The translations under genes were made by a program, and so were the position numbers. From the NCBI RefSeq assembly GCF_056746865.1, contig NZ_CM163382.1: a stretch of 64,000 nt of DNA; one strand, given 5' to 3'. This document shows positions 46,273-62,224 of this stretch, in pieces. A model generated the notes under the pieces. It had not been told where the DNA came from, did not search any database, and was given only the letters and a program-made list of their open reading frames with translations. Position 1 is the first letter of the stretch; every line of letters begins with the position of its first letter.

Positions 46273-47482
<1,210 letters not shown>

Positions 47483-47486
<4 letters not shown>

Positions 47487-48133
47487 GCCTCTGCTCCGGG
47501 TTTGATCAGCATCAGACCACAGCCGAACGCGCGGCTTTTGCCATACCCCTGGCTCAGACGTTGCAGAAATAACCCGGGATCGGTGACCGTAAGCATCCCC
47601 GTATAATCCACGCTACTGAACTGGATCAGTTGCCGGGAGTTTTCCCGCCACAGTTGCTGTTGTCGGTAGGCATCAACCGAGGTATCCAGCAGTGTAAAAC
47701 CGCTTCTCTCCCCCTGCGCTGCCAGCCAGTCCAGCGCCGCCTGTTGTTGATGCAACCAGACATCACTTCCTTCCGCCTGCCCCCTCACCTGCCGTTTCGC
47801 CTCCATCAGCAGATCGTGGCGCTTGCCCGCTTTACAGATTGTTGGATTCGCCCGCAGGTTGAAACAAAGTTGTTGTCCGGTACGCAGCTCGGGCACAAAT
47901 GACCGGCATTCGATGGTGAACGTTTCACTTTCTGCCGGGCGTTCCTGCGACAGTACAAAAAAGCGAAACGCGCCCTGGAGTTCTTCCCGACGATAAAGAA
48001 ATTGCCTTTCTTTGCCGCCAGGGAAGAGATCCCACAGCCACTGATGCATCACATATTCCCCGCGATCCACCAGATGCAGCAACTGCGCAGGCGAAAGCTG
48101 GCCGGTATGTAAGGTTATTCTTGAGAGGTACAT
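47483..48133 (-). CDS. cas6e: Cas6e (CasE) crRNA endoribonuclease, divergent I-E variant
   Basis: 216 aa from MYLSRITLHTG with RBS GGAGGA; conserved MYLS N-terminus, FNLRANP and C-terminal GKSRAFGCGL. Confidence 0.8.
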
Positions 48134-48837
48134 GGTTCCTCCTTGCTGAGCCACGGCCCCTGATTGACGGTGCGTTCCCCAAACAACCATTGCTGACGAT
48201 TTAAAGGAACATCCCGGCGGCGCAATATTTTGCTCGCGACCAGGCCGTCGTGCTCCCCTTCCCACCAGCATTCATCCTGAAGTTTCGGGAGTGCGATTTT
48301 CAGGTCGTGGAAATGCTCCTGATACTGGTGATATGCGTTACGTAAAACATCAGACGCGTTGCCTTCAAGCAGTAACGGCGCAAGTGGTAATGCCAGCGGA
48401 TGACTTTTTCGCCCCAGATAAAGCGGAAAAACTGGATGGCGTAAACCGCCCTGCAACTGTTCGAGGCTGTAAGGCGCATCGGCTGTTGTTGCCACCGCCA
48501 CCATCCACCAGGCGTCGGTGTAGTAGTCGCGCCGGGAGATAATCGCGCTCAGAAGATCAGGGTCGCTCAACTCTTCGCGACGGCTGAAATAACGCGCTTT
48601 ACGCACCTCTTTTGGCATCTGGATTGTGTGATAATCCCGTGCCCAGCGCGGGTTACGGCTGGCGCAAACCACCAGTGAATAGTGGCGGTTAAACACGTTT
48701 AATCGTTCGGTATCATCACGCCGAATCCCTACCCCGGCAGCCAGCAGCCCCAGCAATGCTGAGCGCGAAGGCAGTTCATGGGTATGACGCACTTCGCCCG
48801 CTCCAAACAAACATTTCTCAACGTCTACTGAAGTCCA
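48115..48837 (-). pseudogene. cas5e: cas5e (casD) lacking its 5-prime end
   Basis: frame reads ...HELPSRSALLGLLAAGVGIRRDD (Cas5 glycine-rich motif) but hits a stop at 48838-48840 with no ATG; upstream is AT-rich island DNA. Confidence 0.65.
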
Positions 48838-48969
48838 TCAAATCCACGAATATCAAGCCTTTCAGCCATTTTCATAGCTTATTAACGTCTACTCACAACT
48901 ACCAGAATCTACACACAGAAGTGTATAGTAATGCGTATAGGACAAAATTTATTTTTTGGAGCTATACAC

Positions 48970-50184
48970 ATGCTGCTTTCAGACCTTGCTATCAGGCGCG
49001 CGAAGCCGAAAGAAAAGGCTTATACACTCAATGACGGTAACGGGCTTTCGTTACTCATTGAGCCGAACGGCTCGAAAGGGTGGCGACTACGTTACAGATT
49101 TGCAGGAAAGCCCAAAATGTTGTCGTTGGGCGTGTACCCTGATGTGTCTCTGTCTGATGCCAGAGCGGCAAGGGATGAGGCTAAAAGGCTTCTTGCTGGT
49201 GGTATAAATCCAAGTGAGGCCAGAAAAGCTCAAAAGCGAGAACAGGCGAGCAAATTTGGCAATACTTTTGAGGGTATCGCTCGCGAATGGTATGAAAAGC
49301 GGATCGACAGGTGGTCATCGTCATACGCCGAGGAAATGATCGAGACGTTTGAAAAAGACGTTTTTCCGTACATTGGCGGCAGGCCGATCGCAGAAATTAA
49401 GCCAATGGAGTTGCTTGCGGTTCTCTCCCGTCTTAATGACCGTGGGGCGACCGAAAAATTGCGTAAGGTTCGCCAGCGATGCGGCGAGGTGTTCCGGTAC
49501 GCAATCATCACCGGACGCGCTGAATATAACCCCGCACCAGATCTGGCAAGCGCATTTGCTCCACACAAAAAAGAGCATTATGCCTATTTGAAGGCCGACG
49601 AACTGCCGGAATTTTTCCGCGTTCTTAATACGTACACCGGAAGCCAGATCGTCAAGCTGGGTATGCGATTATTGATTCTGACAGGGCTCCGGCCAGGGGA
49701 ATTACGACAGGCAGAATGGCAGGAGATCGATTTTGATAATCGTTTGTGGGAAGTGCCTAAAGAACGAATGAAGATGCGCCGTCCTCATTGTGTGCCGCTT
49801 TCAGAACAGGCGATCGCTATTCTGGAACAGTTAAAACACATGACGGGGCAGTATCAGTTTATTTTCCCTGGTCGAATCCAGCACAGTAAGCCGATGAGTG
49901 AAATGGCGATGAACGTGCTTATTCGTCGTATTGGCTATTCTGGGCGCGTTACTGGTCATGGGTTCCGGCACACGATGAGCACGATTTTACATGAGCAGGG
50001 CTATAACACCGCGTGGATAGAAACGCAGCTTGCACACGTTGATAAGAACTCAATTCGTGGCACGTACAATCATGCGCAATATCTGGACGGGCGGCGCGAG
50101 ATGCTCCAGTGGTACGCCGACTATATGGACTCACTGGAACAGGGCGGCAACGTGGTGCATGGCAAGTTCGGAAAATGTGGATGA
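48970..50184 (+). CDS. int: tyrosine recombinase, P4/CP4-57-type integrase
   Basis: 404 aa from MLLSDLAIRRAK; N-terminal arm-binding-like domain; C-terminal catalytic GHGFRHT and RGTYNHAQY. Confidence 0.9.
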   Translation: MLLSDLAIRRAKPKEKAYTLNDGNGLSLLIEPNGSKGWRLRYRFAGKPKMLSLGVYPDVSLSDARAARDEAKRLLAGGINPSEARKAQKREQASKFGNTFEGIAREWYEKRIDRWSSSYAEEMIETFEKDVFPYIGGRPIAEIKPMELLAVLSRLNDRGATEKLRKVRQRCGEVFRYAIITGRAEYNPAPDLASAFAPHKKEHYAYLKADELPEFFRVLNTYTGSQIVKLGMRLLILTGLRPGELRQAEWQEIDFDNRLWEVPKERMKMRRPHCVPLSEQAIAILEQLKHMTGQYQFIFPGRIQHSKPMSEMAMNVLIRRIGYSGRVTGHGFRHTMSTILHEQGYNTAWIETQLAHVDKNSIRGTYNHAQYLDGRREMLQWYADYMDSLEQGGNVVHGKFGKCG

Positions 50185-50312
50185 CTGGTTGAGTATACAG
50201 TAGTAGACTTTGAGCGACGAAAGAAAAAGCTGTGTCTAGGGTCGCTCCCGAAAAACCGTATACCTCGACGGGCTGGCACAGCCACTACAGTAGAGGACGC
50301 TGAGGTGTGCGT

Positions 50313-51110
50313 ATGATTGATATTCATGCCGAATTAAACGAATACAAAAAAGATTTTATTTCTTTACGTGAATTTCTTGAGGTCGTGCTTAAGGTCGCTG
50401 GTGATGATTATGATGTTTCAGATCTCATAACTTGGATACTCAGGAGAATAAGCGGAGAACATATCCGCCTGTACACAGTAAATGAATTTAAGCTGTTGGA
50501 ATCTTTTTGTAACCCGTATCGGGATGAATTTGATTATGATGTTCTTTATAGAAATCTGGATGCGGTTCGGAAACATGGTTGTTTACCTGGTGAGAGGGAT
50601 GAAAATGGTTTTCTGGTGTCCGGTTATTGGGAAGATCCCGAATTTGAGAACATTGGATTTATAAGGGGTGAAATTTTCGCAATTTTTCCCGATGTCCTTG
50701 ACGCGTTAACGAAGCTGGAAGGCGCTAACTCTTCTGAAAATGACGAGGTACAAGGACGCGATATTGAAAAGAAAGAGTTGCGTACAGAGGATGATTTATT
50801 ATCCCAAATCGCAATGCTGGAAAGAGAAAACGCAGAGTTAAGGGCAAGGATAGAGCAGTTAGAGCAAGAGCGCCCGATACACTTATATAAATACTGGGAT
50901 AAAGACCCATTAGCTAAGGCTATTGAGATTAGAAACAGAGAGTGGGCCAATTACGATCCAGAAAATGATTTTGCCACCAGGGGAAATCAAGAAGCGATAA
51001 CTAGGGAGCTTAAGCAGTGGGGGGCAAGTAATGCTCTTGCAACGCTCATAGAGAGGACTGCCTGCCCTATTAACCGAGACAACAGCCAAAAGAACGCAAA
51101 GCCGGATTAA
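50313..51110 (+). CDS. hypothetical protein (island cargo, unknown function)
   Basis: 265 aa from MIDIHAELNEYKK with RBS gagg; acidic, central coiled-coil-like segment (AMLERENAELRARIEQLEQE); no recognisable motifs. Confidence 0.6.
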   Translation: MIDIHAELNEYKKDFISLREFLEVVLKVAGDDYDVSDLITWILRRISGEHIRLYTVNEFKLLESFCNPYRDEFDYDVLYRNLDAVRKHGCLPGERDENGFLVSGYWEDPEFENIGFIRGEIFAIFPDVLDALTKLEGANSSENDEVQGRDIEKKELRTEDDLLSQIAMLERENAELRARIEQLEQERPIHLYKYWDKDPLAKAIEIRNREWANYDPENDFATRGNQEAITRELKQWGASNALATLIERTACPINRDNSQKNAKPD

Positions 51111-51125
51111 CGCACCATACCGCAT

Positions 51126-51270
51126 ACCCTGAGGGTGATTTACTGTTACCCTGAGGGTATTTTTTTATCTTCCCCGTCAATTTTACCATCACCCTTAGGG
51201 TAGATTTCCTCCCGATTACCATCACCCTTAGGGTTAATTTCCTTCCGGTAACCATTAGGCCTGAGGGTAT
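51126..51270. repeat. five copies of palindrome CCCT(G/T)AGGG within ~33-bp tandem repeats
   Basis: ccctgaggg 51127-51135 and 51149-51157; cccttaggg 51192-51200 and 51225-51233; cctgaggg 51260-51267; 33-bp units at 51184 and 51217. Confidence 0.6.
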
Positions 51271-51337
51271 GAAAATATTCGTTATTTCTGTGCCATGATT
51301 ACCTCGTCAAATTGAGTAGACGTTATGAGGTAAATAG

Positions 51338-51535
51338 ATGTCAAATACGCTTATTCGTTTAACAGAAGTTCAGCGTAGAACTGGATATAGCAAGGCATGG
51401 ATTTATCGCCTTATGGGGCAAGGTAAATTTCCTGCATCAGTTAAAATTGGCTCGCGAGCGATTGCTTTCGTTGAAAGTGAAATTGACGAATGGATCAATC
51501 AGCGTATTGCCGAATCACGCGGAACGGCTGCCTGA
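51338..51535 (+). CDS. alpA: AlpA/Vis-family HTH regulator (excisionase-like)
   Basis: 65 aa MSNTLIRLTEVQRRTGYSKAWIYRLMGQGKFPASVKIGSRAIAFVESEIDEWI; classic AlpA pattern. Confidence 0.8.
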   Translation: MSNTLIRLTEVQRRTGYSKAWIYRLMGQGKFPASVKIGSRAIAFVESEIDEWINQRIAESRGTAA

Positions 51536-51610
51536 TTAAATAGCTACGGGTTATTGCCCAAGCTATCCACTAGCAAATAAAAAGTAACTTAATTCGATAG
51601 CGGAGTTTTT

Positions 51611-52435
51611 ATGAAACTGCGAAAAACGCCCGTACAGGGGCAGGGCTTTGTTCGGCCTGAAAACCAGAATCTGCAAAATTTCGGCGAAATTATCCCGGTT
51701 ATTTCCGGCGTTATTGGCGGGCGTGAAGCCGCTGTTGTTAGCGCAAAAGCGTTACACAAAGCGTTGGGCGTGGGAAAAGACTTCTCTACATGGATCACTG
51801 ATCGTATCTCTGAATATGACTTCACCATTGGGTACGATTACTCAGTCCATAAAACAATTTCCCCAAATTTGGGGAAAAGCCCGAATGGCGAGGCTTACAG
51901 CAAGATTAAGCACTCTGGCAGACCCGGTAAAGACTATCTGTTAAGTGTCGGAATGGCGAAAGAACTGGCAATGATCGAACGCACCGAACAGGGCCGCGCC
52001 GTTCGTCAGTACTTCATCAAATGCGAGGAGGAGCTACACAAGGTAGCGCCTGTACGTTCCGCAGCGTTACGCCGGGAACTGAAAGCCCGTATCACCGTAG
52101 CCAGCTACTTTAAGCCAATGTGTGCCGCGCTGGAGGCGTACCGGGCTGAACTGGGTAAAAACACGCTCCAGCACCACTACACCACGGAAGCCAATATGCT
52201 GGCGCGTATCGTGCTGGGTGGCATGAATGCAAAACAGTGGGCGCAGGCGAACGGCATCACAGGCGAACCACGCGACCACATGAGCACGCTGCAGCTTGAG
52301 CACCTTTCTTACCTTGAGCAGAGCAATATCACGCTGATTGAGTTAGGCCAGGACTACCACCAGCGGAAAGCTGAATTAATTCGTCTTTCGCAACGCTGGT
52401 TAGCCCGCCGCATGGAGGTGAGCAGCCATGCGTAA
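51611..52435 (+). CDS. phage antirepressor-like protein (AntA/Rha-type)
   Basis: 274 aa; motif DFSTWITDRISEYDF...DYLLSVGMAKELAMI...RQYFI resembles antirepressor N-terminal domains. Confidence 0.55.
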   Translation: MKLRKTPVQGQGFVRPENQNLQNFGEIIPVISGVIGGREAAVVSAKALHKALGVGKDFSTWITDRISEYDFTIGYDYSVHKTISPNLGKSPNGEAYSKIKHSGRPGKDYLLSVGMAKELAMIERTEQGRAVRQYFIKCEEELHKVAPVRSAALRRELKARITVASYFKPMCAALEAYRAELGKNTLQHHYTTEANMLARIVLGGMNAKQWAQANGITGEPRDHMSTLQLEHLSYLEQSNITLIELGQDYHQRKAELIRLSQRWLARRMEVSSHA

Positions 52436-52985
52436 ACCTGTCTTTTATGCCGGTCGCACTGAAATCTCTGTCATTAAATTCGATGACATTCAGGTGCGCA
52501 TAGTGAGTATCAACGGCGAGCCGTGGTTTGTTGGCGCTGATGTGTGTGCCGCGCTGGAAATCAGCAATGTTACTGATGCCGTTTCAGTTCTGGATAACGA
52601 TGAGGTAATGACCCTAGCTTTAACCGAGGGTCATTCCGGTAAGCGTGGTGGTGCCAGAAGCTGGAATGTTGTCTCTGAATCAGGTTTCTACAAACTGATC
52701 GCCCGCAGCCGTAAAGCTTCCACACCAGGCACATTTGCGCACCGTTTCAGTAACTGGGTATTCCGCGAGGTGATTCCTTCAATCCGCAAAACGGGGGGTT
52801 ATGGTGTTCCGTTTGCCATGCTGAATGATTTCAGTAAACGTCAGGCTGCATATCAACAGGAAGCCAGCAAACGCGGTTACAGGTTACAGCAATGCAAAGA
52901 GGCAAAAGATGCACTGGAACGAGAAGAGCGGGCGCTATGGCGTAAATATCAGCCTGATTTTCTGGAGGGTGAAAGCAATGTGTAA
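52428..52985 (+). CDS. Bro-N domain protein (antirepressor family)
   Basis: 185 aa; VIKFDDIQVRIVSINGEPWFVGADVCAALEISNVTDAVSVLDNDE matches Bro-N signature; overlaps upstream gene. Confidence 0.7.
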   Translation: MRKPVFYAGRTEISVIKFDDIQVRIVSINGEPWFVGADVCAALEISNVTDAVSVLDNDEVMTLALTEGHSGKRGGARSWNVVSESGFYKLIARSRKASTPGTFAHRFSNWVFREVIPSIRKTGGYGVPFAMLNDFSKRQAAYQQEASKRGYRLQQCKEAKDALEREERALWRKYQPDFLEGESNV

Positions 52986-53153
52986 CGATCCGAACGTTAC
53001 AGAAAGAAAAAGCGCCCCGTTGCTGGATAACAGGCAAAACAAAGGCGACCGGGATAGGTCGCCAGTGGGAACAAAGGAAATCAAACGCATCGCCAACAAT
53101 GCCAGATTTGCGGCTGGTGGGCAATGTGATCAGTGTGCTGGCTTGCTGGTGGG

Positions 53154-53351
53154 CTATTCCTGCTCTTTAGCATCGCCATACTGCGATGTTTTCCAGGTAT
53201 GCGATTCCATTTTTGTGCGCCTGTACTCTTTTAAGAACTTCTCAAGGACAAACGCACATGGCGCAAATCTTTCCTGTTCTTGTTCGCTTACCGCATTTTT
53301 GCGTTGTTTTTTCCTGGATGAGGATAATTTCTTTAATGATTTGTCAGTCAT
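53154..53351 (-). CDS. small basic protein, paralog of the adjacent 65-aa ORF
   Basis: 65 aa; shares C-terminal ...AFVLEKF...AKEQE pattern with neighbour; weak RBS. Confidence 0.4.
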   Translation of the reverse strand: MTDKSLKKLSSSRKKQRKNAVSEQEQERFAPCAFVLEKFLKEYRRTKMESHTWKTSQYGDAKEQE

Positions 53352-53408
53352 CGTAGATACCTGTAACCCTGTGCGCCACAGTTCACCGCACCACGGCGCT
53401 GGTGATGG

Positions 53409-53606
53409 TTACTCCTGCTCTTTGGCCTTCCGGCGCTGTTCATATTTTAATTTGCGTCCACAGGCATCTAAGACCCATGCGGAAAAATTAGCACTAGGAT
53501 TAGTTAATTTTTCTTGTTCAACACTGGCATCAATCCCATCTATAAGCTCGTGCGGGAATCGAATATTTTTCTTTGCTGATTTGTTGTTTGTGTTTCCGCT
53601 AGACAT
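53409..53606 (-). CDS. small ribbon-helix-helix-like DNA-binding protein
   Basis: 65 aa; RBS gaggtg; KKNIRFPHELIDGIDASV resembles Arc/CopG beta-strand plus helix. Confidence 0.5.
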   Translation of the reverse strand: MSSGNTNNKSAKKNIRFPHELIDGIDASVEQEKLTNPSANFSAWVLDACGRKLKYEQRRKAKEQE

Positions 53607-53635
53607 TGGTACACCTCACTTAAATGGATTTGATG

Positions 53636-53711
53636 GGCGCACACAATACAGCAAAAAAAGTGAGAAGTTAAGTATTGACATGTGCGCACACATGATTTTA
53701 ATCTGTGCGCA
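53636..53711. promoter_or_regulatory. divergent promoter/operator region with three GTGCGCA(C) palindromes
   Basis: ggcgcac 53636-53642, gtgcgcac 53682-53689, gtgcgca 53705-53711; TTGACA 53675-53680 with TTTAAT 53697-53702. Confidence 0.45.
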
Positions 53712-53810
53712 AGTTTGGGTTGCATTGCTCAAATTAAGCAACGCCCCGCAGTGCTCGCAACACATGCAGGGCGTCTAACCACCAACGATAGAAAGCGTAT
53801 CGAGGTAGCT

Positions 53811-54014
53811 ATGTTAAATCATACCACACACCCGCAAGGGCGGGACTCGCACAACCTGAATAAATACATCTGGCGTTTTATCGCCCTGAGCACCGCACAA
53901 CCACGCGTAATACACATCGAGGCCGCCAGCGAACAGGAAGCCCGTCAGCAATCCCCGGCTGGCTGCGTGATGGTATTTACTGCCCGCATCCGTCAGGGGG
54001 AATACTATGCGTGA
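53811..54014 (+). CDS. small hypothetical protein (possibly Icd-like)
   Basis: 67 aa from MLNHTTHPQG with RBS gagg; YIWRFIALSTAQPRVIHIEAASEQEARQQ; assignment by weak recall. Confidence 0.4.
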   Translation: MLNHTTHPQGRDSHNLNKYIWRFIALSTAQPRVIHIEAASEQEARQQSPAGCVMVFTARIRQGEYYA

Positions 54015-54264
54015 TGAACGATTTATTCTTCTGGAGCAAAAATTCAGTGAAGCGCCAAAAAATGAAATTGATGCTCTTTTGCATATCGCGAATATGCTAA
54101 AAGTAGCAACGTTCCTTATAGTTTCGAATCTGGAGCATGAAACGGCGTTAGATATACTGAACAGTGCTGTCGATTATTCTGAATATATTGCCGAGGATAA
54201 ATACAGGCAATTACCAGATTTGTTAGCCCATAAATATAAAGAAGAACCTCACACCGGGAAATAA
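54007..54264 (+). CDS. hypothetical protein
   Basis: 85-aa ORF overlapping neighbours on both sides (translational coupling). Confidence 0.5.
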   Translation: MRDERFILLEQKFSEAPKNEIDALLHIANMLKVATFLIVSNLEHETALDILNSAVDYSEYIAEDKYRQLPDLLAHKYKEEPHTGK

Positions 54265-54266
54265 AC

Positions 54267-54569
54267 ATGAAGAAGATTAAATTTACTGGCTTAAATGCCA
54301 GCGGACAGACTCACCCGAAAATCAGGATCGGGGATATTTTCCGGGATAAATATGGTGACAGCGTGGTTATTAATTCCGTGTATGAACGGCACATTACATA
54401 CCGCCGCGCAGGGTACGACTATGACTGTGTGATGCCCGTTCATCAGTTCCGGCGTGATTTTTCACTGGTATGTGCAGCACCACGCAGTAAGCCCACCAGT
54501 AAAGAGAAAGCACGGGCAAATATTCAGGTAATAAAGAACATGATTAACGCATTCAGGGGCAAGAAATGA
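54267..54569 (+). CDS. hypothetical protein
   Basis: 100-aa ORF; stop overlaps start of the 708-aa gene. Confidence 0.5.
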   Translation: MKKIKFTGLNASGQTHPKIRIGDIFRDKYGDSVVINSVYERHITYRRAGYDYDCVMPVHQFRRDFSLVCAAPRSKPTSKEKARANIQVIKNMINAFRGKK

Positions 54570-56692
54570 AACGCGCACCGAATTTAAAGCACCAGCCGAA
54601 AGACAAAATGACGGAGGTGATTATCTTTGCGGGTAGTGATGCCTGGGCACATGCGAAAGAGTGGAGCGAATGGGCCGGAAAGCATATTGCGGCAGATGAT
54701 ACACATCCAGTTATTCTTGGACCGGAACAACTGGCGAGTCTGGCAGACACGCAAATCATCGACAAAGGGCGCTATTACGTGCGCGTTTATCGTGCTGGTG
54801 AAATATCAGAGCAGCACCTTACACAGATAGCGACACTGCTTGCAGTGGCGGGTGTGAAGGAGGCGCGTTGCTACCGCAGCTTTGTTGATCAGCAGCCGGA
54901 GGACTGGACACCGCGCATGGCTGGACTGAAGGATGATGCGGAACGCGGTAACAGTCTGGTGATCAACCTTCCGGCGAAGACAAATTTCACCGGAAATTAT
55001 GATGACGAATTAAAGCCTCGTGTTGAAAGTCGCGTCGATGGTGTTTTCTGGGTAACGCCCAAAGTGGACAAGCAGTCAGGCGAAATTATCCGGCCTGAGA
55101 CGTGGTTATGTTCTCCGCTTGAACTACTGGGAACAGGAACAATCGGCAAAGAGCATTACCGCGTGATGCGCTGGAAAAAACCAGCAAACCATGAGGTCAT
55201 TACAATGGCGGTCCCGTGCGGAGGCATTGGTGACCGTGACGGCTGGCGGTTGCTGAAAGACCACGGCCTTAACGTGACGACCAACGGCAAATACAGGGCT
55301 ATCTTGGCTGACTGGATGCAGTTAAGCGGAAACCATGAGGAATGGCAGTTAAGCACAACAACGGGGTGGCATTTTGGTGCGTACATCATGCCGGATGGTT
55401 CGATCATCGGTGAATCAGAGAAACCCATCCTGTTTACCGGAAAAACTGCCGCTGTTAATGGCTATTCCGTGGCGGGAACAGCGGAGGGCTGGCGCGATAC
55501 CGTGGCACGGCTGGCTGGTGGTAATCCGTCCATGATGCTGGGTGTGGCGGTATCGCTATCTGCACCATTAATCGGGCTGGTGGGTGCTGACGGCTTCGGG
55601 GTTCATCTTTTTGAGCAATCATCAGCAGGTAAAACCACCACACAGAACATTGCATCAAGTTTATGGGGAGAGCCGGACGCGCAACGGCTGACCTGGTACG
55701 GAACGGCGTTAGGTATCGCCAACGAGGCCGAAGCACATAATGACGGGCTGTTACCCCTGGATGAAATAGGCCAGGCCGGAAACGCACGGGAGGTGTCCAC
55801 GTCAGCCTATACGCTGTTTAACGGTTCCGGGAAATTACAGGGGGCGAAGGACGGCGGCAACAGGGAGATAAAACACTGGCGTACGGTGGCAATCAGCACC
55901 GGAGAAATGGACGTTGAAACATTCCTCAAAACGGAAGGGATAAAAATTAAAGCGGGACAGCTTGTCCGTCTGCTTAACGTACCGATGGAAAAGGCCTCGC
56001 AGTTTCACGAATACAGCACCGGAAAGGCGCACGCAGACGCGTTAAAAGATGCCTGGACAGAAAATCACGGGGCGGCAGGTCGTGAGTGGGTTAAATGGCT
56101 GGCAGGCCACCAGCAGGAGGCAAAGGACGCGGTAAGGGCATGTCGCGAGCGGTGGCGCAACCTGATACCGGAGAGCTACGGCGAGCAGGTTCACCGTGTG
56201 GGGGAAAGATTCGCCGTACTGGAGGCCGCGCTTGTGCTTTCCGGTCATGTTACAGGCTGGGATGTTCAGGCGTGCCGTGATGCAGTTCAGCATAACTTTA
56301 ATGCCTGGGTGAAGGAATTCGGCACGGGCAACAGGGAATTTAAACAGATGGTTGAACAGGCTGAGGCGTTTTTGTCGTCGTTCGGGTTCAGTCGATACCT
56401 TCCCTATCCAAACAGCGACGAGCGTGATTTACCGATTAAAGACCTTGCCGGATACAGAAAGGGGAGTATCAGAAACGAAGATGACGAGTTCCGTTTTTAC
56501 ACGTTCCCGCATGTGTTTGAGGGTGAGATAGCACAGGGATTTAATCCGTCTCACTTTGCCCGCGCGTTGAGTGCAGCCGGAATGCTGGAAGCGGGAGGCG
56601 ACCGCCGTTACAAGAAAAAGGCGCTCGGCAGGATTGGCGGGAAGCAACATATTTTTTACGTGCTGATGTTCCAGCCTGAAGCAGAAGATTAA
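54566..56692 (+). CDS. putative replication initiator (primase/helicase-like P-loop protein)
   Basis: 708 aa; Walker-A-like FEQSSAGKTT; directly upstream of iteron cluster and SSB gene. Confidence 0.65.
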   Translation: MKRAPNLKHQPKDKMTEVIIFAGSDAWAHAKEWSEWAGKHIAADDTHPVILGPEQLASLADTQIIDKGRYYVRVYRAGEISEQHLTQIATLLAVAGVKEARCYRSFVDQQPEDWTPRMAGLKDDAERGNSLVINLPAKTNFTGNYDDELKPRVESRVDGVFWVTPKVDKQSGEIIRPETWLCSPLELLGTGTIGKEHYRVMRWKKPANHEVITMAVPCGGIGDRDGWRLLKDHGLNVTTNGKYRAILADWMQLSGNHEEWQLSTTTGWHFGAYIMPDGSIIGESEKPILFTGKTAAVNGYSVAGTAEGWRDTVARLAGGNPSMMLGVAVSLSAPLIGLVGADGFGVHLFEQSSAGKTTTQNIASSLWGEPDAQRLTWYGTALGIANEAEAHNDGLLPLDEIGQAGNAREVSTSAYTLFNGSGKLQGAKDGGNREIKHWRTVAISTGEMDVETFLKTEGIKIKAGQLVRLLNVPMEKASQFHEYSTGKAHADALKDAWTENHGAAGREWVKWLAGHQQEAKDAVRACRERWRNLIPESYGEQVHRVGERFAVLEAALVLSGHVTGWDVQACRDAVQHNFNAWVKEFGTGNREFKQMVEQAEAFLSSFGFSRYLPYPNSDERDLPIKDLAGYRKGSIRNEDDEFRFYTFPHVFEGEIAQGFNPSHFARALSAAGMLEAGGDRRYKKKALGRIGGKQHIFYVLMFQPEAED

Positions 56693-56715
56693 CTTCCCTG
56701 TGTGAGGTAAAAAGT

Positions 56716-56840
56716 TGCGGGTTATGCGGGTTATCCTGTGCATAAGTTAATTAACTGAATGATTAAAAAGGAAATTAATAACCCGCACGTAACCCGCAAA
56801 ACGGCAGTTATAACCCGCAAATGTGCGATTGTAACCCGCA
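56716..56840. repeat. iteron cluster TAACCCGCA (putative island origin of replication)
   Basis: direct copies at 56779, 56790, 56811, 56832 (spacing 11/21/21 bp) plus inverted tandem gcgggttat at 56717-56734. Confidence 0.65.
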
Positions 56841-56902
56841 AAATTTCACTGTAAGAGTGTAAACAAGCGTAACTATCACGTTAAAACCGGAGAACAAACA
56901 GC

Positions 56903-57328
56903 ATGACGGCGCAAATATCAGCTTACGGGCGGCTGGTGGCTGACCCGCAGTTAAAGACCACCAGCAAGGGCACACAAATGGCGATGGCGAGTATGGCGGT
57001 CCCCCTTCCATGCAATCAGACAGATGACGGAACGGCGACGATGTGGTTATCCGTCCTGGCGTTTGGCAGACAGGCTGACGCACTGGCAAAACACCACAAA
57101 GGCGAACTGGTGAGCGTGGCCGGTAACATGCAGGTGAGCTGGTGGACGGGCCAGAACGGCGAAACGAGGCAGGGATGGCAGGTTATCGCAGACAGCGTAA
57201 TCAGTGCGCGAACGGCGCGACCGGGCGGCAAAAAAGGCCAGCAGGGGCAGGCTACTGATGCACTGAACAGGGCAAAGCAACAGACAGGCCAGCACGATGA
57301 TCCGTACGGGGACGGGATACCGTTTTAA
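56903..57328 (+). CDS. ssb: single-stranded DNA-binding protein (SSB-like)
   Basis: 141 aa; OB-fold-like N-terminus, Gly/Gln-rich linker, C-terminal acidic tail DDPYGDGIPF. Confidence 0.7.
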   Translation: MTAQISAYGRLVADPQLKTTSKGTQMAMASMAVPLPCNQTDDGTATMWLSVLAFGRQADALAKHHKGELVSVAGNMQVSWWTGQNGETRQGWQVIADSVISARTARPGGKKGQQGQATDALNRAKQQTGQHDDPYGDGIPF

Positions 57329-57411
57329 TTCACAACAGCGAACAGAGTAATTACCCAGTGCGCCGTAAAGCCCCGTCCTTCAGGTCGGGGATATAAGGCG
57401 CGGTTTTCCAC

Positions 57412-57828
57412 CTAACTAGGTGTTTGCTGTTGTTCAATGTATTGGCGGATGATGGATATTGGCGCACCTCCGCAGCTACTGGCAAAATAGCTGGGACTCC
57501 ATAAAACGCCTTTGTAGTAATACCTGACTGCAATATCTGGTCGATCTCGTCGCAATAATCTACTCGATACGCCCTTGAGACTGTTCACCAGGGTGGATAT
57601 CGCCAATTTGGGAGGATAGTTAATTAGCAGGTGAACGTGATCTCGTTCTCCATCCATTTCAACCAGTTCAGCTTCAAAATCAGCACATACACTTGAAAAG
57701 TAAGTGCGTAGTTTTTCTATTGCGTCATGGTCAAAAATCTGGCGTCGGTACTTGGTAACAAAGACCAGGTGAACGTGCATCAGGAAGACACAGTGCCTTC
57801 CACGTCGGATATCGGTTTCTTTTTTCAT
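57412..57828 (-). CDS. tnpA: IS200/IS605 Y1 (HUH) transposase TnpA
   Basis: 138 aa from MKKETDIRRG; HUH motif HVHLL and catalytic Tyr region VLWSPSYFASSCGG. Confidence 0.85.
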   Translation of the reverse strand: MKKETDIRRGRHCVFLMHVHLVFVTKYRRQIFDHDAIEKLRTYFSSVCADFEAELVEMDGERDHVHLLINYPPKLAISTLVNSLKGVSSRLLRRDRPDIAVRYYYKGVLWSPSYFASSCGGAPISIIRQYIEQQQTPS

Positions 57829-57850
57829 AGGCCAAAGTATAATTTGGCAT

Positions 57851-59059
57851 ATGAAACGACTACAAGCTTTCAAATTCCAGTTAAGACCAAATGGAAAACA
57901 GGAGCGTGAAATGAGGCGCTTCGCGGGCGCATGTCGTTTCGTTTTCAATCGTGCTCTGGCGCTTCAGAATGAGAATCATGAGGCCGGGAACAAATATATT
58001 TCTTATGCAAAGATGACTTCCTGGCTGGTTGAATGGAAAAATGCTACTGAAACGCAATGGCTTAAAGATTCTCCCTCACAGCCATTGCAGCAGTCACTGA
58101 AAGACCTTGAGCGAGCCTACAAAAATTTCTTTCAGAAGCGTGCCGCTTTTCCCCGATTCAAAAAGCGGGGACAGCATGATGCATTCCGCTATCCGCAGGG
58201 TGTTAAGCTCGATCAGGAAAACAGCCGTATTTTTCTGCCGAAACTGGGCTGGATGCGCTACCGGAACAGCCGTCAGGTCACGGGTGTTGTGAAAAATGTC
58301 ACTGTCAGCCAGTCCTGCGGTAAGTGGTACATCAGTATTCAGACAGAAAGTGAAGTATCAACTCCGGTTCACCCTTCAGCATTAATGGTCGGGCTGGATG
58401 CTGGCGTGGCTAAACTCGCCACGCTGTCAGATGGCACGGTCTTTGAGCCTGTAAACAGTTTTCATAAAAACCAGAAGAAGCTGGCGAGACTTCAGCGCCA
58501 GTTAAGCCGCAAGGTTAAATTCAGCAACAACTGGCAGAAGCAGAAACGCAAAATACAGCGACTGCATTCCCGTATCGCAAATATCCGCAGGGACTACCTT
58601 CACAAAGTCACAACGACCATCAGCAAAAACCACGCAATGATAGTCATTGAGGATTTGAAGGTCAGCAACATGTCAAAGTCAGCCTCGGGTACGGTCAGCC
58701 AGCCGGGGCGCAATGTCCGGGCAAAATCAGGTTTAAACCGTTCGATACTGGATCAGGGCTGGTATGAAATGCGCCGTCAGCTTGAGTACAAGCAGCTCTG
58801 GTGTGGCGGTCAGGTGCTTGCTGTTCCGCCAGCGTACACAAGCCAGCGTTGCGCGTGCTGTGGTCATACAGCGAAAGAAAATCGCCTGTCACAAAGTCAA
58901 TTCAGATGCCAGGTATGTGGATATACAGCGAACGCCGATGTAAACGGCGCTCGTAACATTTTAGCGGCGGGGCACGCCGTTCTTGCCTGTGGAGGGATGG
59001 TGCAGTCAGGCCGCCCGTTGAAGCAGGAACCCACCGAAATGATTCAGGCGACAGCCTGA
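57851..59059 (+). CDS. tnpB: TnpB (OrfB) RuvC-like RNA-guided nuclease
   Basis: 402 aa; N-terminus [17 protein letters not shown]; RuvC region [15 protein letters not shown]; zinc finger [12 protein letters not shown]...CQVCG; [10 protein letters not shown]. Confidence 0.85.
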
Positions 59060-59118
59060 ACGTAGCAGGAATCCACGTCCTTCAGGGCGTGGAGGATGTC
59101 AAATATCAATGCGACGAC
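58900..59118 (+). ncRNA. predicted TnpB omega-RNA (tnpB 3-prime end, right-end hairpin, flanking guide)
   Basis: inferred from IS200/IS605 architecture only; right-end hairpin 59073-59092; guide would be about 16 nt from 59103. Confidence 0.3.
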
Positions 59119-59692: not shown

Positions 59693-62224
59693 ATGCCAGT
59701 CGTACCAACAGTATCCGGACGTCAGGTTGAGAGCCGTGGAGTTCAGTCAGCAGGCTTGCAGACGTTTTCTCAGCCAGGTATTGGTGATGCTTTTGTTCGG
59801 GCAGGGGCAGAGGCAATTGATGTTTTTGGTCAGGCAAAACAGCGTGCCAATATTGCCTTGATTCAGGAGGCATCCCTTAAACTCAGTCAGATAGGCAGTG
59901 ATCTGCTGAATAATCCTGAAACAGGATTGCTTAACCTGAAAGGGAAAAATGCTATTGGAAAAGGCCATGAGTATACACAGCAGTTTGATGCTCAGATCGA
60001 ACAACTGGCTATGTCGCTGCCGGATGAACAGGCTCGTAATGCTTTCATGCAGCAGGCGCAGCAGCAGCGTATTCAGTTCGCTACGCAGGCCGGGAGGTAC
60101 GAGATAGGGCAAATAAATGCCTACGAAGAAGGCCAGTTTCAGGCGACACTGCTGAATAATGGTAAAAATGCCTCAGCATTATATGGCGACAACGCAGCAT
60201 ACATATTGGCTAATACGCAAACTTTCCAGCAAATTGAGGATTACGGTATTGCGCATGGCTGGAGCGACGAGCAAATCCAGGCCAAGAAAATCGAGTTTAA
60301 AGAAGCAACAGCAAAAGCAACTGCTCAAAATGCTATTGGAGCAAACTATCTTCAGGTAAGACAGCAAAATGGCGAGTTAAGCGATACTGCTGCTGGATCT
60401 CGCCGTGCTGTAGCAGATAGTGGCTCTTCCGATCGTACCCGCGGTATACGCAACAATAACCCCGGCAATCTTGAATACAGCAAAACTAATCCGTGGATTG
60501 GGCAGACTGGTGATGATGGTCGCTTTGCCAAATTCGAAACCCCTGAACACGGTATTCGCGCGCTTGGTCGCAATTTGCTGTCGTATCAGCGTCAGGGTTA
60601 TGACACCATCAGCGAAATAATTAATCGCTGGGCACCGGCCAGTGATGATAATAAAACTGATGCTTATATACGGGCAGTATGTGCTCAGCTCGGTGTAACT
60701 CCTGACCAGCCGCTTGACGCATCAAATCCTGACACACTGAAATCTCTGTGCAAAGCAATTATTCATCATGAGCAAGGCAGTCAGCCGTACAGTGATCAGC
60801 AATTGGCCGCTGGCGTTAGTGCCGCACTGGGGCTTTCTCAGCTACCGACAAAAAATAAACGTTATACCGGTGTAGCCTGGTTCGATGCTTTAAGTGAATC
60901 AGATCAGGCCAGCGTGTTGCGACAGACGGATGCATTAGCCAGACAGCAGCAGGCTGAATATAGAACGATGCTCGAAAGCCGGGTTCGCGATGCAACGGCT
61001 GCGTATATGCGTGGCGTTGAATTTCCTAACCCGCCTGGTGAGGGTGAGTTCATTGCTGCTTATGGTGTCAGAGAAGGAAACCTGCGATATACCGAGTTCA
61101 GAAATTTGCAGATCGCCGGACAGTATATAGGCTCTTTCCGCAACATGCCGACAAGCAGCATTACCGCATATGTTGAGCAATTACGCCCGGATACTGGTGA
61201 GACAGGGGAGGGGTATGCGTCTCGTGCGGAGTTATTCGACCGGGTATCGGCGGCAGCCACGAAGGTAATAACCCAGAGGCAGAATAATCCGTTTAGTGCA
61301 GCGGTGGAAATCGGAGCCTATAAGCCGATCACCAGCAACAACCCTGACGACATCACTGCCGAGGTGGCTAACCGTTTCTCGTCGCAGGAAAGCTTACGCG
61401 CGTTGGGAATTAATGCCCCACTCCTCAACAGTGAAGAGGCGGCTGCGCTGGCACAGCAGGTGCGCGGCACTCAGAACGTTGACCAGACAATTAAACTGTT
61501 GCAGAGCATGGGGGAGAAGCTGCCTGCGCCAGCAATACGGCAGGTGGCATCTGTAATTGCTCCGAACAGTGCGGCAACAGCCTATTCTGCGCTGCTGCTG
61601 GGCACGCCGGATAACCAGTACGACAACACCAGGCCGACGATCCCATATAGTCAGTTCATCGGGTATAAGCCGACGATGAACAAGTACGACGTTGCAAAGG
61701 TTATTCTTTCCGGCGACCAACTACTGAATCCGACGAAGGCCATGAAGAATGCGGGCATAACTCCGGTACAGTTGCCGAGCGAAGATAAGATGAAAGACGC
61801 TTTCGACGAACAGGTAGGTAATGCATTTGCCCGTAACCCGCAGTTACGCCAGATCAGTTATAGCCTTTTCAAAGCCGCTTACGCAGGAATAGCTTATCAA
61901 TCTGGTGATGCCTCTACGGTAAGAACCAGTATGCCTGATACAGACATTGTAGCTGATGCCGTGAAGTATGCTACTGGCGGTATATACAATGGTTTTAATG
62001 GCGGCGACGTTGTAATGCCTTTTGGCATGGATAAATCTACTTTCAAAGATCGCTATACCACATCTGCGAAACAAGCACTGAAAGATGCCGGACTTAACGT
62101 AAATGCAGTGTCAAATTTCACGCCAGTTAATATCGGCAATAACCGGTATCGGCTTGTAAATGGTAGCGGACGCTGGGCAACAGATCCCAGAACCAATAAA
62201 GCTATTGTCGTGAGGGTTGAATAA
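59693..62224 (+). CDS. large hypothetical protein (843 aa), Q/A-rich
   Basis: strong RBS aggagg; conserved-looking central block IRNNNPGNLEYSKTNPWIGQ...FAKFETPEHGIRALGRNLLSYQRQGYDTISEIINRWAP; no P-loop; function unknown. Confidence 0.7.
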   Translation: MPVVPTVSGRQVESRGVQSAGLQTFSQPGIGDAFVRAGAEAIDVFGQAKQRANIALIQEASLKLSQIGSDLLNNPETGLLNLKGKNAIGKGHEYTQQFDAQIEQLAMSLPDEQARNAFMQQAQQQRIQFATQAGRYEIGQINAYEEGQFQATLLNNGKNASALYGDNAAYILANTQTFQQIEDYGIAHGWSDEQIQAKKIEFKEATAKATAQNAIGANYLQVRQQNGELSDTAAGSRRAVADSGSSDRTRGIRNNNPGNLEYSKTNPWIGQTGDDGRFAKFETPEHGIRALGRNLLSYQRQGYDTISEIINRWAPASDDNKTDAYIRAVCAQLGVTPDQPLDASNPDTLKSLCKAIIHHEQGSQPYSDQQLAAGVSAALGLSQLPTKNKRYTGVAWFDALSESDQASVLRQTDALARQQQAEYRTMLESRVRDATAAYMRGVEFPNPPGEGEFIAAYGVREGNLRYTEFRNLQIAGQYIGSFRNMPTSSITAYVEQLRPDTGETGEGYASRAELFDRVSAAATKVITQRQNNPFSAAVEIGAYKPITSNNPDDITAEVANRFSSQESLRALGINAPLLNSEEAAALAQQVRGTQNVDQTIKLLQSMGEKLPAPAIRQVASVIAPNSAATAYSALLLGTPDNQYDNTRPTIPYSQFIGYKPTMNKYDVAKVILSGDQLLNPTKAMKNAGITPVQLPSEDKMKDAFDEQVGNAFARNPQLRQISYSLFKAAYAGIAYQSGDASTVRTSMPDTDIVADAVKYATGGIYNGFNGGDVVMPFGMDKSTFKDRYTTSAKQALKDAGLNVNAVSNFTPVNIGNNRYRLVNGSGRWATDPRTNKAIVVRVE

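Follow-up and report, generated by a model that had tools for sequence, protein, structure and literature searches.

The 64,000-nucleotide stretch of Escherichia coli DNA analysed here (assembly GCF_056746865.1, contig NZ_CM163382.1), referred to as the window, contains an island built like the phage satellites known as Gram-negative phage-inducible chromosomal islands (PICIs). The subject of this report is the 204-bp intergenic region between two divergent genes of the island: a leftward gene for a 65-residue protein of the YlcI/YnfO family, and the icd-like gene that opens the rightward replication operon. The genes, promoters, and sites in question are located as follows.

53409-53606, minus strand: ylcI-like gene, open reading frame (ORF) A, 65 residues, YlcI/YnfO (DUF3950) family, predicted ribbon-helix-helix repressor.
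53811-54014, plus strand: icd-like gene, first cistron of the rightward operon (NF033153, 68.6 bits; annotation of a near-identical island).
53675-53680, plus strand: -35 hexamer TTGACA of P_R, the rightward promoter of the icd-like/primase operon; TTGA is invariant in 29-30 of 30 distinct loci and the next C is found in 27 of 30.
53699-53704, plus strand: -10 hexamer TAATCT of P_R, after an 18-nt spacer; conserved as TAWnnT (T in 24/30, A in 29/30, final T in 26/30).
53643-53648, minus strand: -10 hexamer TATTGT of the leftward ylcI promoter (TATAGT or TATGGT in relatives), in the conserved TGTATAGT block that abuts O1.
53633-53644, no strand assigned: O1 (GTGTGCGCCCAT on the minus strand), overlapping -10/+1 of the ylcI promoter, identical to O2 at 11 of 12 positions; proposed autoregulation site.
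53680-53691, no strand assigned: O2 (ATGTGCGCACAC), which holds the 10-bp palindrome TGTGCGCACA and fills the -35/-10 spacer of the rightward promoter.
53703-53714, no strand assigned: O3 (CTGTGCGCAAGT), covering the last base of the -10 hexamer and the start-site region of the rightward promoter; it matches O2 at a conserved 23-nt offset in most loci.

The rightward operon continues past the icd-like gene with an 85-residue ORF, a DUF4222 gene, and the gene of a DUF927 primase/helicase (708 residues, 54566-56692). We predict that the region is the on/off control of the satellite, a repressor-operator switch, and consider this reading probable. A switch divergent from the replication operon had been suggested in an earlier annotation of the same DNA from its letters and ORFs (the original prediction), and comparisons across species and within E. 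coli support it.

The original prediction described a triple GTGCGCA(C) operator overlapping a rightward TTGACA-N16-TTTAAT promoter. There are three sites, but between the two divergent genes the heptamer GTGCGCA is exact just twice: at 53682-53689, as the palindrome GTGCGCAC within TGTGCGCACA (53681-53690), and at 53705-53711. The remaining site is imperfect and reads GGGCGCAC; positions 53636-53643 are GGCGCACA, and the 10-mer 53634-53643 is TGGGCGCACA, with one mismatch. O2 and O3 overlap the rightward promoter as described, whereas O1 overlaps the -10 hexamer of the ylcI promoter. Both hexamers of the earlier promoter are present with a 16-nt spacer (TTTAAT at 53697-53702), but the conserved -10 hexamer probably lies 2 nt to the right. 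A consensus promoter scan called no sigma-70 site in 52900-54100, and it missed TTGACA-N16-TTTAAT because TTTAAT has no A at its second position. The positions of P_R were taken from the cross-species comparison instead. The -35 region of the ylcI promoter, as read from the sequence, is weak.

The heptamer GTGCGCA is not enriched in the window, where 15 copies were found and 20 were expected. The clustering of the sites was compared with 1000 Markov-simulated 64-kb sequences. Three non-overlapping matches to TGTGCGCACA with three mismatches in total within 81 nt were found in none of the simulated sequences. When each site was allowed up to two mismatches, a cluster was present in 45 of the 1000, which makes the lenient test marginal. 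The decisive support for the operators is comparative, namely the presence of three sites in the same register in 32 related loci.

The genome scan yielded 33 loci, of which 31 are ylcI loci from Enterobacterales and Orbales, and six more E. coli islands were added. The order of the primase gene, the first small gene, the intergenic region, and the divergent ylcI gene, followed by alpA and int, is conserved in Serratia, Rahnella, Pectobacterium, Klebsiella, Pantoea, Xenorhabdus, Brenneria, Proteus, Arsenophonus, Gilliamella, and Orbus. The gene next to ylcI is a convergent alpA or int in many of the loci from outside E. coli. Three similar 12-bp sites are present in register in every one of the 32 aligned loci, from E. 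coli to Gilliamella. One site abuts the invariant GTCAA (that is, TTGAC), the second is positioned 23 nt further in 28 of the 32 loci, and the third is found on the opposite side, in most loci at a distance of about 47 nt, next to the conserved TGTATAGT. O1 of the window is the best match to O2 within its own region and lies +33 to +35 from the anchor, as does its counterpart in the majority of the 32 loci. The O3 site of Rahnella is a perfect palindrome, CTGTGCGCACAG.

The sequence of the sites varies by lineage and is common to the three sites within one locus. The window and Rahnella have GTGTGCGCACAT; Serratia, Brenneria, and Pectobacterium have GTGCAYAWACAC; Xenorhabdus has GTGTTTAAACAC; and Gilliamella and Orbus have TGTCCGCACA. 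Operator identity correlates with that of the 15 N-terminal residues of YlcI up to and including RFP (Mantel r = 0.74, p = 2e-4). With the adjacent leader controlled for, the partial correlation is 0.69, and with the rest of YlcI controlled for, it is 0.64. The correlation of the operator with the leader, controlling for the N-terminus, is 0.007 and not significant. The window and the Rahnella loci L004 and L005 share the strand motif GNTNNKSAKKNIRFP together with GTGTGCGCACAT, while their primases share no more than 28% identity and no relationship is detectable between their first genes. In locus L009, the primase is 64% identical and the operator is different. The comparison indicates that the sequence of the sites tracks the N-terminal arm and strand of YlcI, and not the leader, the primase, or the Icd-like gene.

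Within E. coli, the differences among islands are concentrated in one segment.

53440-53740, no strand assigned: putative swappable specificity ("immunity") cassette, comprising YlcI codons ~1-55, O1-O3, and both promoters.

The identity of this segment to four other E. coli islands is 26-73%, and that of its flanks, 53380-53440 and 53740-53800, is 70-100% (86-100% for loci L035 and L037). The predicted DNA-recognition part of YlcI is the only coding sequence inside the swapped segment. As far as sequences can tell, such a swap is the pattern of a phage immunity region.

ORF A belongs to the YlcI/YnfO family according to both NCBIfam NF041551 (59 bits, with a cutoff of 30) and Pfam DUF3950 (PF13132, i-Evalue 1.6e-6), and an identical protein is called YlcI/YnfO by the Prokaryotic Genome Annotation Pipeline (PGAP). 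A ribbon-helix-helix-like N-terminus had been noticed earlier in one of two 65-residue proteins encoded on this strand. The AlphaFold2 model of ORF A (predicted local distance difference test score, pLDDT, of 77) contains an extended N-terminus followed by helices formed by residues 19-35 and 41-64, which is consistent with a ribbon-helix-helix-like build. Members of the ribbon-helix-helix (Arc/MetJ/CopG) superfamily have a β-strand followed by two helices, and their dimers place an antiparallel two-stranded sheet in the major groove of the operator. In the alignment of the ORF A family with the repressor Arc of phage P22 by hhalign, AKKNIRFPHELIDGIDA is placed on the strand and helix A of Arc, PQFNLRWPREVLDLVRK; the probability of the match is 5%, and nothing is detectable beyond the strand motif. 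Residues R16, F17, and P18 are invariant across the YlcI family, and positions 11, 12, and 14, which we take to correspond to the base-contacting positions of Arc, are variable. The K/E-rich C-terminal tails vary freely within the family. In the searchable literature, which leaves subscription-only papers outside, no function is assigned to YlcI, YnfO, or DUF3950, nothing relevant was found on a ribbon-helix-helix repressor in PICIs, and YlcI is not mentioned as a repressor of these islands.

The leader of the icd-like gene contains a further conserved element, which points to a second layer of control.

53812 to 53731, minus strand: candidate cis-antisense RNA of ~82 nt, complementary to the 5' untranslated region, Shine-Dalgarno sequence, and start codon of the icd-like gene.
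53818-53826, minus strand: extended -10 element TGgTATGAT, proposed promoter of the antisense RNA, inside codons 3-5 of the icd-like gene; read from the sequence.

Two hairpins with strong covariation occupy the 100 nt that separate P_R from the start codon of the icd-like gene; 13 of their 20 pairs show compensatory changes. The proportion of paired cells in the alignment is 98.3%, compared with 82% in shuffled alignments and 33-51% when the partners are slid. The fold appears to be selected on the minus strand because 61 G-U and no A-C cells are found there; 531 of 540 cells are paired on this strand, and 470 of 540 on the plus strand. A T-rich tail follows the large hairpin on the minus strand only, and is clearest in Xenorhabdus and Gilliamella. 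The candidate RNA comprises a hairpin (53786-53802), the conserved GUGGUUAGA, a terminator hairpin (53741-53774), and a U-rich tail. Its predicted folding energy, from 53812 to 53731, is -38 kcal/mol (z = -4.96). The covariance model of the element, R1, has a single match in the window (53728-53815, minus strand, 78 bits), and it matches E. coli PICIs that were left out of its building; it has no match in satellite P4. The candidate is present in all related loci examined, and a TAnnnT hexamer or TGnTATGAT element is found at the equivalent position of essentially all loci, just upstream of the start-codon complement, despite the unrelated N-termini of the first genes. No Rfam family reaches its threshold over the leader/antisense element. 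The R1162-like plasmid antisense RNA family (RF00043) matches the plus strand at 53739-53812 and shares CUAACCACCAAC, with a score of 18.3 bits (E = 0.66), below the gathering score of 55. This resemblance may be due to chance or may be a distant echo of IncQ-type replication control. A ProQ/FinO-family protein was considered as an obligatory partner of the antisense RNA and rejected: it is absent from capsid-bearing PICIs with the same RNA, and in the window its gene was deleted by an insertion sequence (IS) element. The gene is present in the islands of SCU-105 and O104:H4.

Based on the arrangement of the sites, promoters, and hairpins, a mechanism of control can be outlined. The N-terminal arm and β-strand of YlcI (...SAKKNIRFP...) would recognise the three 12-bp sites O1, O2, and O3, which have the form GTG-N6-CA(C/T). 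Protein bound to O2 and O3 would exclude RNA polymerase from TTGACA-18-TAATCT and thereby keep the icd-like/primase replication operon off. Binding to O1, at -10/+1 of the ylcI promoter, would provide negative autoregulation. The antisense RNA, by covering the leader, Shine-Dalgarno sequence, and start codon, would damp leaky expression of the first rightward gene. The second small leftward gene, ORF B, would be an unrelated accessory gene, known only from Escherichia, on the same transcript as ylcI. From the end of the alpA-antA/B-BRO-N genes to the P_R region (52985-53675), the terminator scan found nothing on the plus strand. Therefore, transcription from the alpA side could run antisense over ORF B and ylcI into the replication operon, and this read-through is a possible route of AlpA-dependent induction.

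Several observations weigh against the proposed switch. O1 and O3 of the window are imperfect, with 11 of 12 and 9 of 12 positions matching O2. The -10 hexamer of P_R is weak, so that an activator may be required as well; the one known from Gram-negative PICIs is AlpA (PMC6092414). In E. coli, the antisense terminator has a poor U-tract (UUGCUUAAUUU). The operators and the N-terminal codons of YlcI are located within ~100 bp of each other, and linkage could explain part of their correlation. This explanation is made less likely by the equally close leader, which shows no such correlation. Binding, expression, or phenotype data for a YlcI/YnfO protein were not found in the searchable literature. 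We infer DNA binding by YlcI and transcription of the antisense RNA from sequence, and repression as the direction of control solely from where the sites lie.

The second small gene and the 3'-ends of both genes bear on the alternatives to the switch.

53154-53351, minus strand: ORF B, 65 residues, small basic helical protein, phrog_21027 (unknown function).
53044-53063, minus strand: intrinsic-terminator-like hairpin (GGCGACC...GGTCGCC, then TTTGTTTT), end of the ylcI-ORF B unit, identified by a terminator scan.
53398-53426, minus strand: 3'-end repeat, copy 1 (GCCAAAGAGCAGGAGTAACCATCACCAGC), containing the last ylcI codons, the stop codon, and downstream bases.
53145-53171, minus strand: 3'-end repeat, copy 2 (GCTAAAGAGCAGGAATAGCCCACCAGC), containing the last ORF B codons, the stop codon, and downstream bases.

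The two 65-residue minus-strand ORFs at 53154-53351 and 53409-53606 are present as originally described, and both are annotated by PGAP in a 99.8%-identical E. coli record. They are 58 nt apart, and ORF B is probably co-transcribed with ylcI. The ORF B family comprises 38 clusters with in-frame indels, whose named sources are all Escherichia, and has the conserved core ERFAPCAFxLEKFLKEYRRTK. An exhaustive profile search retrieved 14 representatives among 1.84 billion proteins, none of them informative. ORF B has no Pfam, PADLOC, or PDB match and no match to a toxin family, and its AlphaFold2 model is a helical hairpin of low confidence (pLDDT 66.7). Both proteins end in AKEQE, as had been noted, but the shared C-terminal block is limited to these five residues. 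They are encoded within a direct repeat of ~28 nt that spans the last four codons, the stop codon, and about ten non-coding bases of both genes. Because the repeat extends into non-coding DNA past both stops, the shared ending is a feature of the DNA. Copy 1 of the repeat falls in the segment that flanks the cassette on the left (53380-53440) and is well conserved from one E. coli island to another. If the two copies recombined, ORF B would be precisely deleted.

Four other explanations of the region were weighed against the proposed switch. The hairpins at 53741-53802 might act in the sense leader of the icd-like mRNA, in translational control or processing, with no separate antisense RNA. 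Watson-Crick covariation fits either strand, the Shine-Dalgarno sequence is located in or beside the small hairpin, and the sub-threshold Rfam hint is on the plus strand. The excess of G-U over A-C cells and the more complete pairing favour the minus strand, as do the T-run after the large hairpin, found on that strand only, and the TAnnnT/extended -10 element conserved there at the right distance; a purely sense-strand function is unlikely. The repeats might instead be bound by another protein of the island, as iterons of the primase/helicase or as sites for AlpA or the Icd-like protein, with ylcI merely adjacent. P4-type satellites carry short primase-bound origin repeats, and the P4 record annotates 8-bp "ori type 1" repeats; AlpA is the documented activator of Gram-negative PICI genes (PMC6092414); and the PHROGs label for Icd-like families is "transcriptional repressor". 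However, the sites do not follow the primase, as the window, Rahnella, and L009 demonstrate, and they do not follow the first gene, since L004 and L005 have the same sites and no icd match. The segment swapped in E. coli codes only for the N-terminus of YlcI, and the sites are placed relative to the -35 and -10 hexamers in the way of promoter operators. The PHROG label probably goes back to the coding sequence of P4 that was historically annotated "cI gene product", in a region where the mapped Rfam elements are RNAs. We regard binding by another protein as rather improbable.

The remaining two explanations concern the pair of small genes. ylcI and ORF B might constitute a self-contained module, a ribbon-helix-helix antitoxin with a toxin or partner, in which the palindromes serve autoregulation only and the effect on the replication operon is incidental. 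The ribbon-helix-helix gene is the first and the small gene the second, with a short gap and a shared terminator; ORF A weakly matches the Pfam HicB-like antitoxin (E = 0.25), and one Joint Genome Institute (JGI) record labels a relative of ORF B "RelE". However, none of the examined loci from outside E. coli has ORF B downstream of ylcI; in these loci, ylcI and the three sites persist and the next gene is often the convergent alpA or int. The predicted all-helical ORF B matches no toxin family, PADLOC entry, or PDB structure, and two of the three sites are on the rightward promoter, not on that of ylcI. A type II toxin-antitoxin module, which would have a conserved downstream partner and a recognisable toxin family, was rejected, and the self-contained module in general is very unlikely. 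The original prediction interpreted the two ORFs as tandem paralogs, and a duplicated pair of repressors might act together on the triple GTGCGCA(C) operator. The two proteins have the same length, strand, and AKEQE end, and the repeat is present at both 3'-ends. Nevertheless, BLASTP gives no alignment of the two at E<=100, hhalign of the two family alignments gives a probability of 0.4%, and the predicted architectures differ. ylcI is found in Enterobacterales and Orbales, whereas ORF B is found in Escherichia only. KAKEQE is one of many tails of YlcI, relatives of ORF B with tails other than AKEQE exist, and the repeat continues into non-coding DNA. The claim of paralogy has to be given up, and a joint action of duplicated repressors is highly improbable. 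The repressor-operator switch formed by YlcI and its three sites remains our preferred reading.

The island that harbours the proposed switch has the gene order int, int-alpA RNA, alpA, antA/B, and BRO-N, followed by the oppositely oriented ORF B and ylcI, and then by the icd-like, DUF4222, DUF927 primase, and SSB genes.

50229-50296, plus strand: int-alpA RNA motif, between the integrase gene and the next ORF (Rfam RF02996, 46.9 bits; gathering score 35.8).

After the integrase gene come alpA, a Bro/Ant zone, and a replication module based on a primase, and there are no phage lysis or tail genes, as is characteristic of PICI-type satellites. The layout is like that of EcCIMP1 (PMC11773190), and the zones of the island match those set out in PMC10111431. 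Positions 48792-57354 are 99.5% identical to an island of E. coli SCU-105, in which PGAP annotates an integrase, an AlpA-type regulator, AntA/AntB, BRO-N, a "hypothetical protein" (ORF B), a "YlcI/YnfO family protein" (ORF A), and Icd-like, DUF4222, DUF927, SSB, ProQ/FinO, and PerC proteins. The same module of ylcI, operators, Icd, and antisense RNA is present in E. coli PICIs with genes for capsid, decoration, and small terminase proteins. Loci L040-L044 (E. coli A1_136, 2014C-3061, and O104:H4 C227-11) combine the same ylcI/operator/icd module with three different replication proteins (DUF927, "DNA primase family", and RepA helicase) and with late regions of which some contain capsid, decoration, and small-terminase genes and some do not, which indicates that modules have been shuffled around a switch that is conserved. 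Of 5426 complete E. coli genomes, 1428 match some part of the 1.1-kb region, in most cases the Icd-like/leader segment, and a divergent ylcI is present in both sampled genomes with Icd-only matches.

The left junction of the island (48792-48798) is located inside cas5e of a type I-E CRISPR-Cas operon, and the left flank (46800-48798) contains cas2e, cas1e, cas6e, and a 5'-truncated cas5e. The satellite appears to interrupt the Cascade operon in the strain of the window; the right junction is outside the window. Strain ETEC1747 has a remnant of an island at the same cas5e site, whereas the 99.5%-identical SCU-105 island is at tRNA-Gly. An IS200/IS605-type element at 57355-59102 (tnpA, 57412-57948, minus strand; tnpB, 57851-59059, plus strand) replaces ~980 bp that in SCU-105 contain the ProQ/FinO-family gene, a hypothetical gene, and part of a PerC-family pseudogene. 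Further downstream, past the replication module, are an 843-residue ORF (59693-62224) and another large ORF, both "hypothetical" in SCU-105. The large ORFs from 59693 onward may be cargo, for example defence genes.

The global repressor of Gram-negative PICIs is unclear in the literature (PMC6092414), and the only immunity reported in later surveys is the RNA-based type (C4/isrK) of some islands (PMC10111431). We tentatively suggest, as a possibility that falls short of being probable, that YlcI/YnfO (DUF3950) proteins serve Gram-negative PICI-type satellites as master repressors or immunity determinants. In each island, a swappable cassette of arm/strand and three operators would silence the replication operon, reinforced by the conserved cis-antisense RNA; induction would come from helper phages, or from convergent transcription driven by AlpA across ylcI, overcoming the switch; and the types of cassette would constitute "immunity groups" like those of lambdoid imm regions. 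If true, a domain of unknown function would gain a role, the silence of the satellites would be explained, and their incompatibility or immunity groups would be defined. The analysis supplies a candidate repressor, three operators with base-level coordinates, natural specificity variants, and a candidate antisense RNA that has not been described previously. The mechanism itself, with a ribbon-helix-helix repressor, promoter-overlapping operators, and an antisense RNA, is conventional.

The proposed control combines elements of several known systems. The immI region of phage P22 encodes the ribbon-helix-helix repressors Mnt and Arc, has the divergent promoters Pant and Pmnt, and produces the sar antisense RNA. 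It shares with the island a small ribbon-helix-helix repressor (predicted here) divergent from the controlled operon, operators on back-to-back promoters with autoregulation (proposed here), and a short cis-antisense RNA (a candidate here) over a ribosome-binding site of the controlled operon, and the strand of YlcI aligns with that of Arc. Unlike in P22, homology to Arc is not detectable beyond the strand motif, and the island has three 12-bp sites with spacings of 23 and 47 bp, whereas P22 has single Arc and Mnt operators. The island switch has one ribbon-helix-helix gene and faces a satellite replication module; P22 has two such genes and an antirepressor gene.

In satellite P4, the immunity elements (the CI RNA, which is C4 of Rfam, and the seqA/isrK leader) are at the same place, between the early promoter PLE and the first ORF (Icd/"cI"-like) of the primase operon, and control acts on the leader at the RNA level, as proposed here. 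The CI RNA of P4 arises by processing of the sense transcript and works through premature termination. P4 contains C4 and isrK and no ylcI, whereas the window contains ylcI, three operators, and the candidate cis-antisense RNA. Searches for P4-type C4 and isrK RNAs gave no Rfam match at E<=1 over 48000-58000 or at E<=10 over 53600-53900, while P4 itself, used as a positive control, gave 74.9 bits for C4 and 60.8 bits for isrK. P4-like RNA immunity was rejected, with neither RNA in the region and no match of R1 to P4. In the IncQ plasmids R1162/RSF1010, the small repressor F and a 75-nt countertranscript RNA control a helicase/primase replication operon. The combination of a small repressor and an antisense RNA of ~75-80 nt on a replication operon is similar, as is the weak Rfam resemblance that includes CUAACCACCAAC. 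However, the RF00043 score is far below the gathering score and on the strand that is not favoured by G-U pairs, and does not amount to membership.

The Stl/Rpr regulators of Staphylococcus aureus pathogenicity islands (SaPIs) and other Gram-positive PICIs are also divergent from a xis/replication operon, and the presumed role is the same, quiescence until a helper phage arrives (PMC6092414). They are larger proteins, unlike YlcI with its 65 residues and predicted ribbon-helix-helix fold. We know of no helper-encoded antirepressor for YlcI. As in the lambdoid imm434 and imm21 regions, the recognition segment of the repressor and the operators seem to be exchanged as a cassette through conserved flanks, in elements that are otherwise nearly identical; the lambdoid regions belong to phages and encode the helix-turn-helix proteins CI and Cro, whereas the satellite has a single, predicted ribbon-helix-helix regulator. 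By analogy, the closest working counterpart of the proposed switch would be P22 immI, and by position and presumed role it would be Stl/Rpr of the Gram-positive PICIs.

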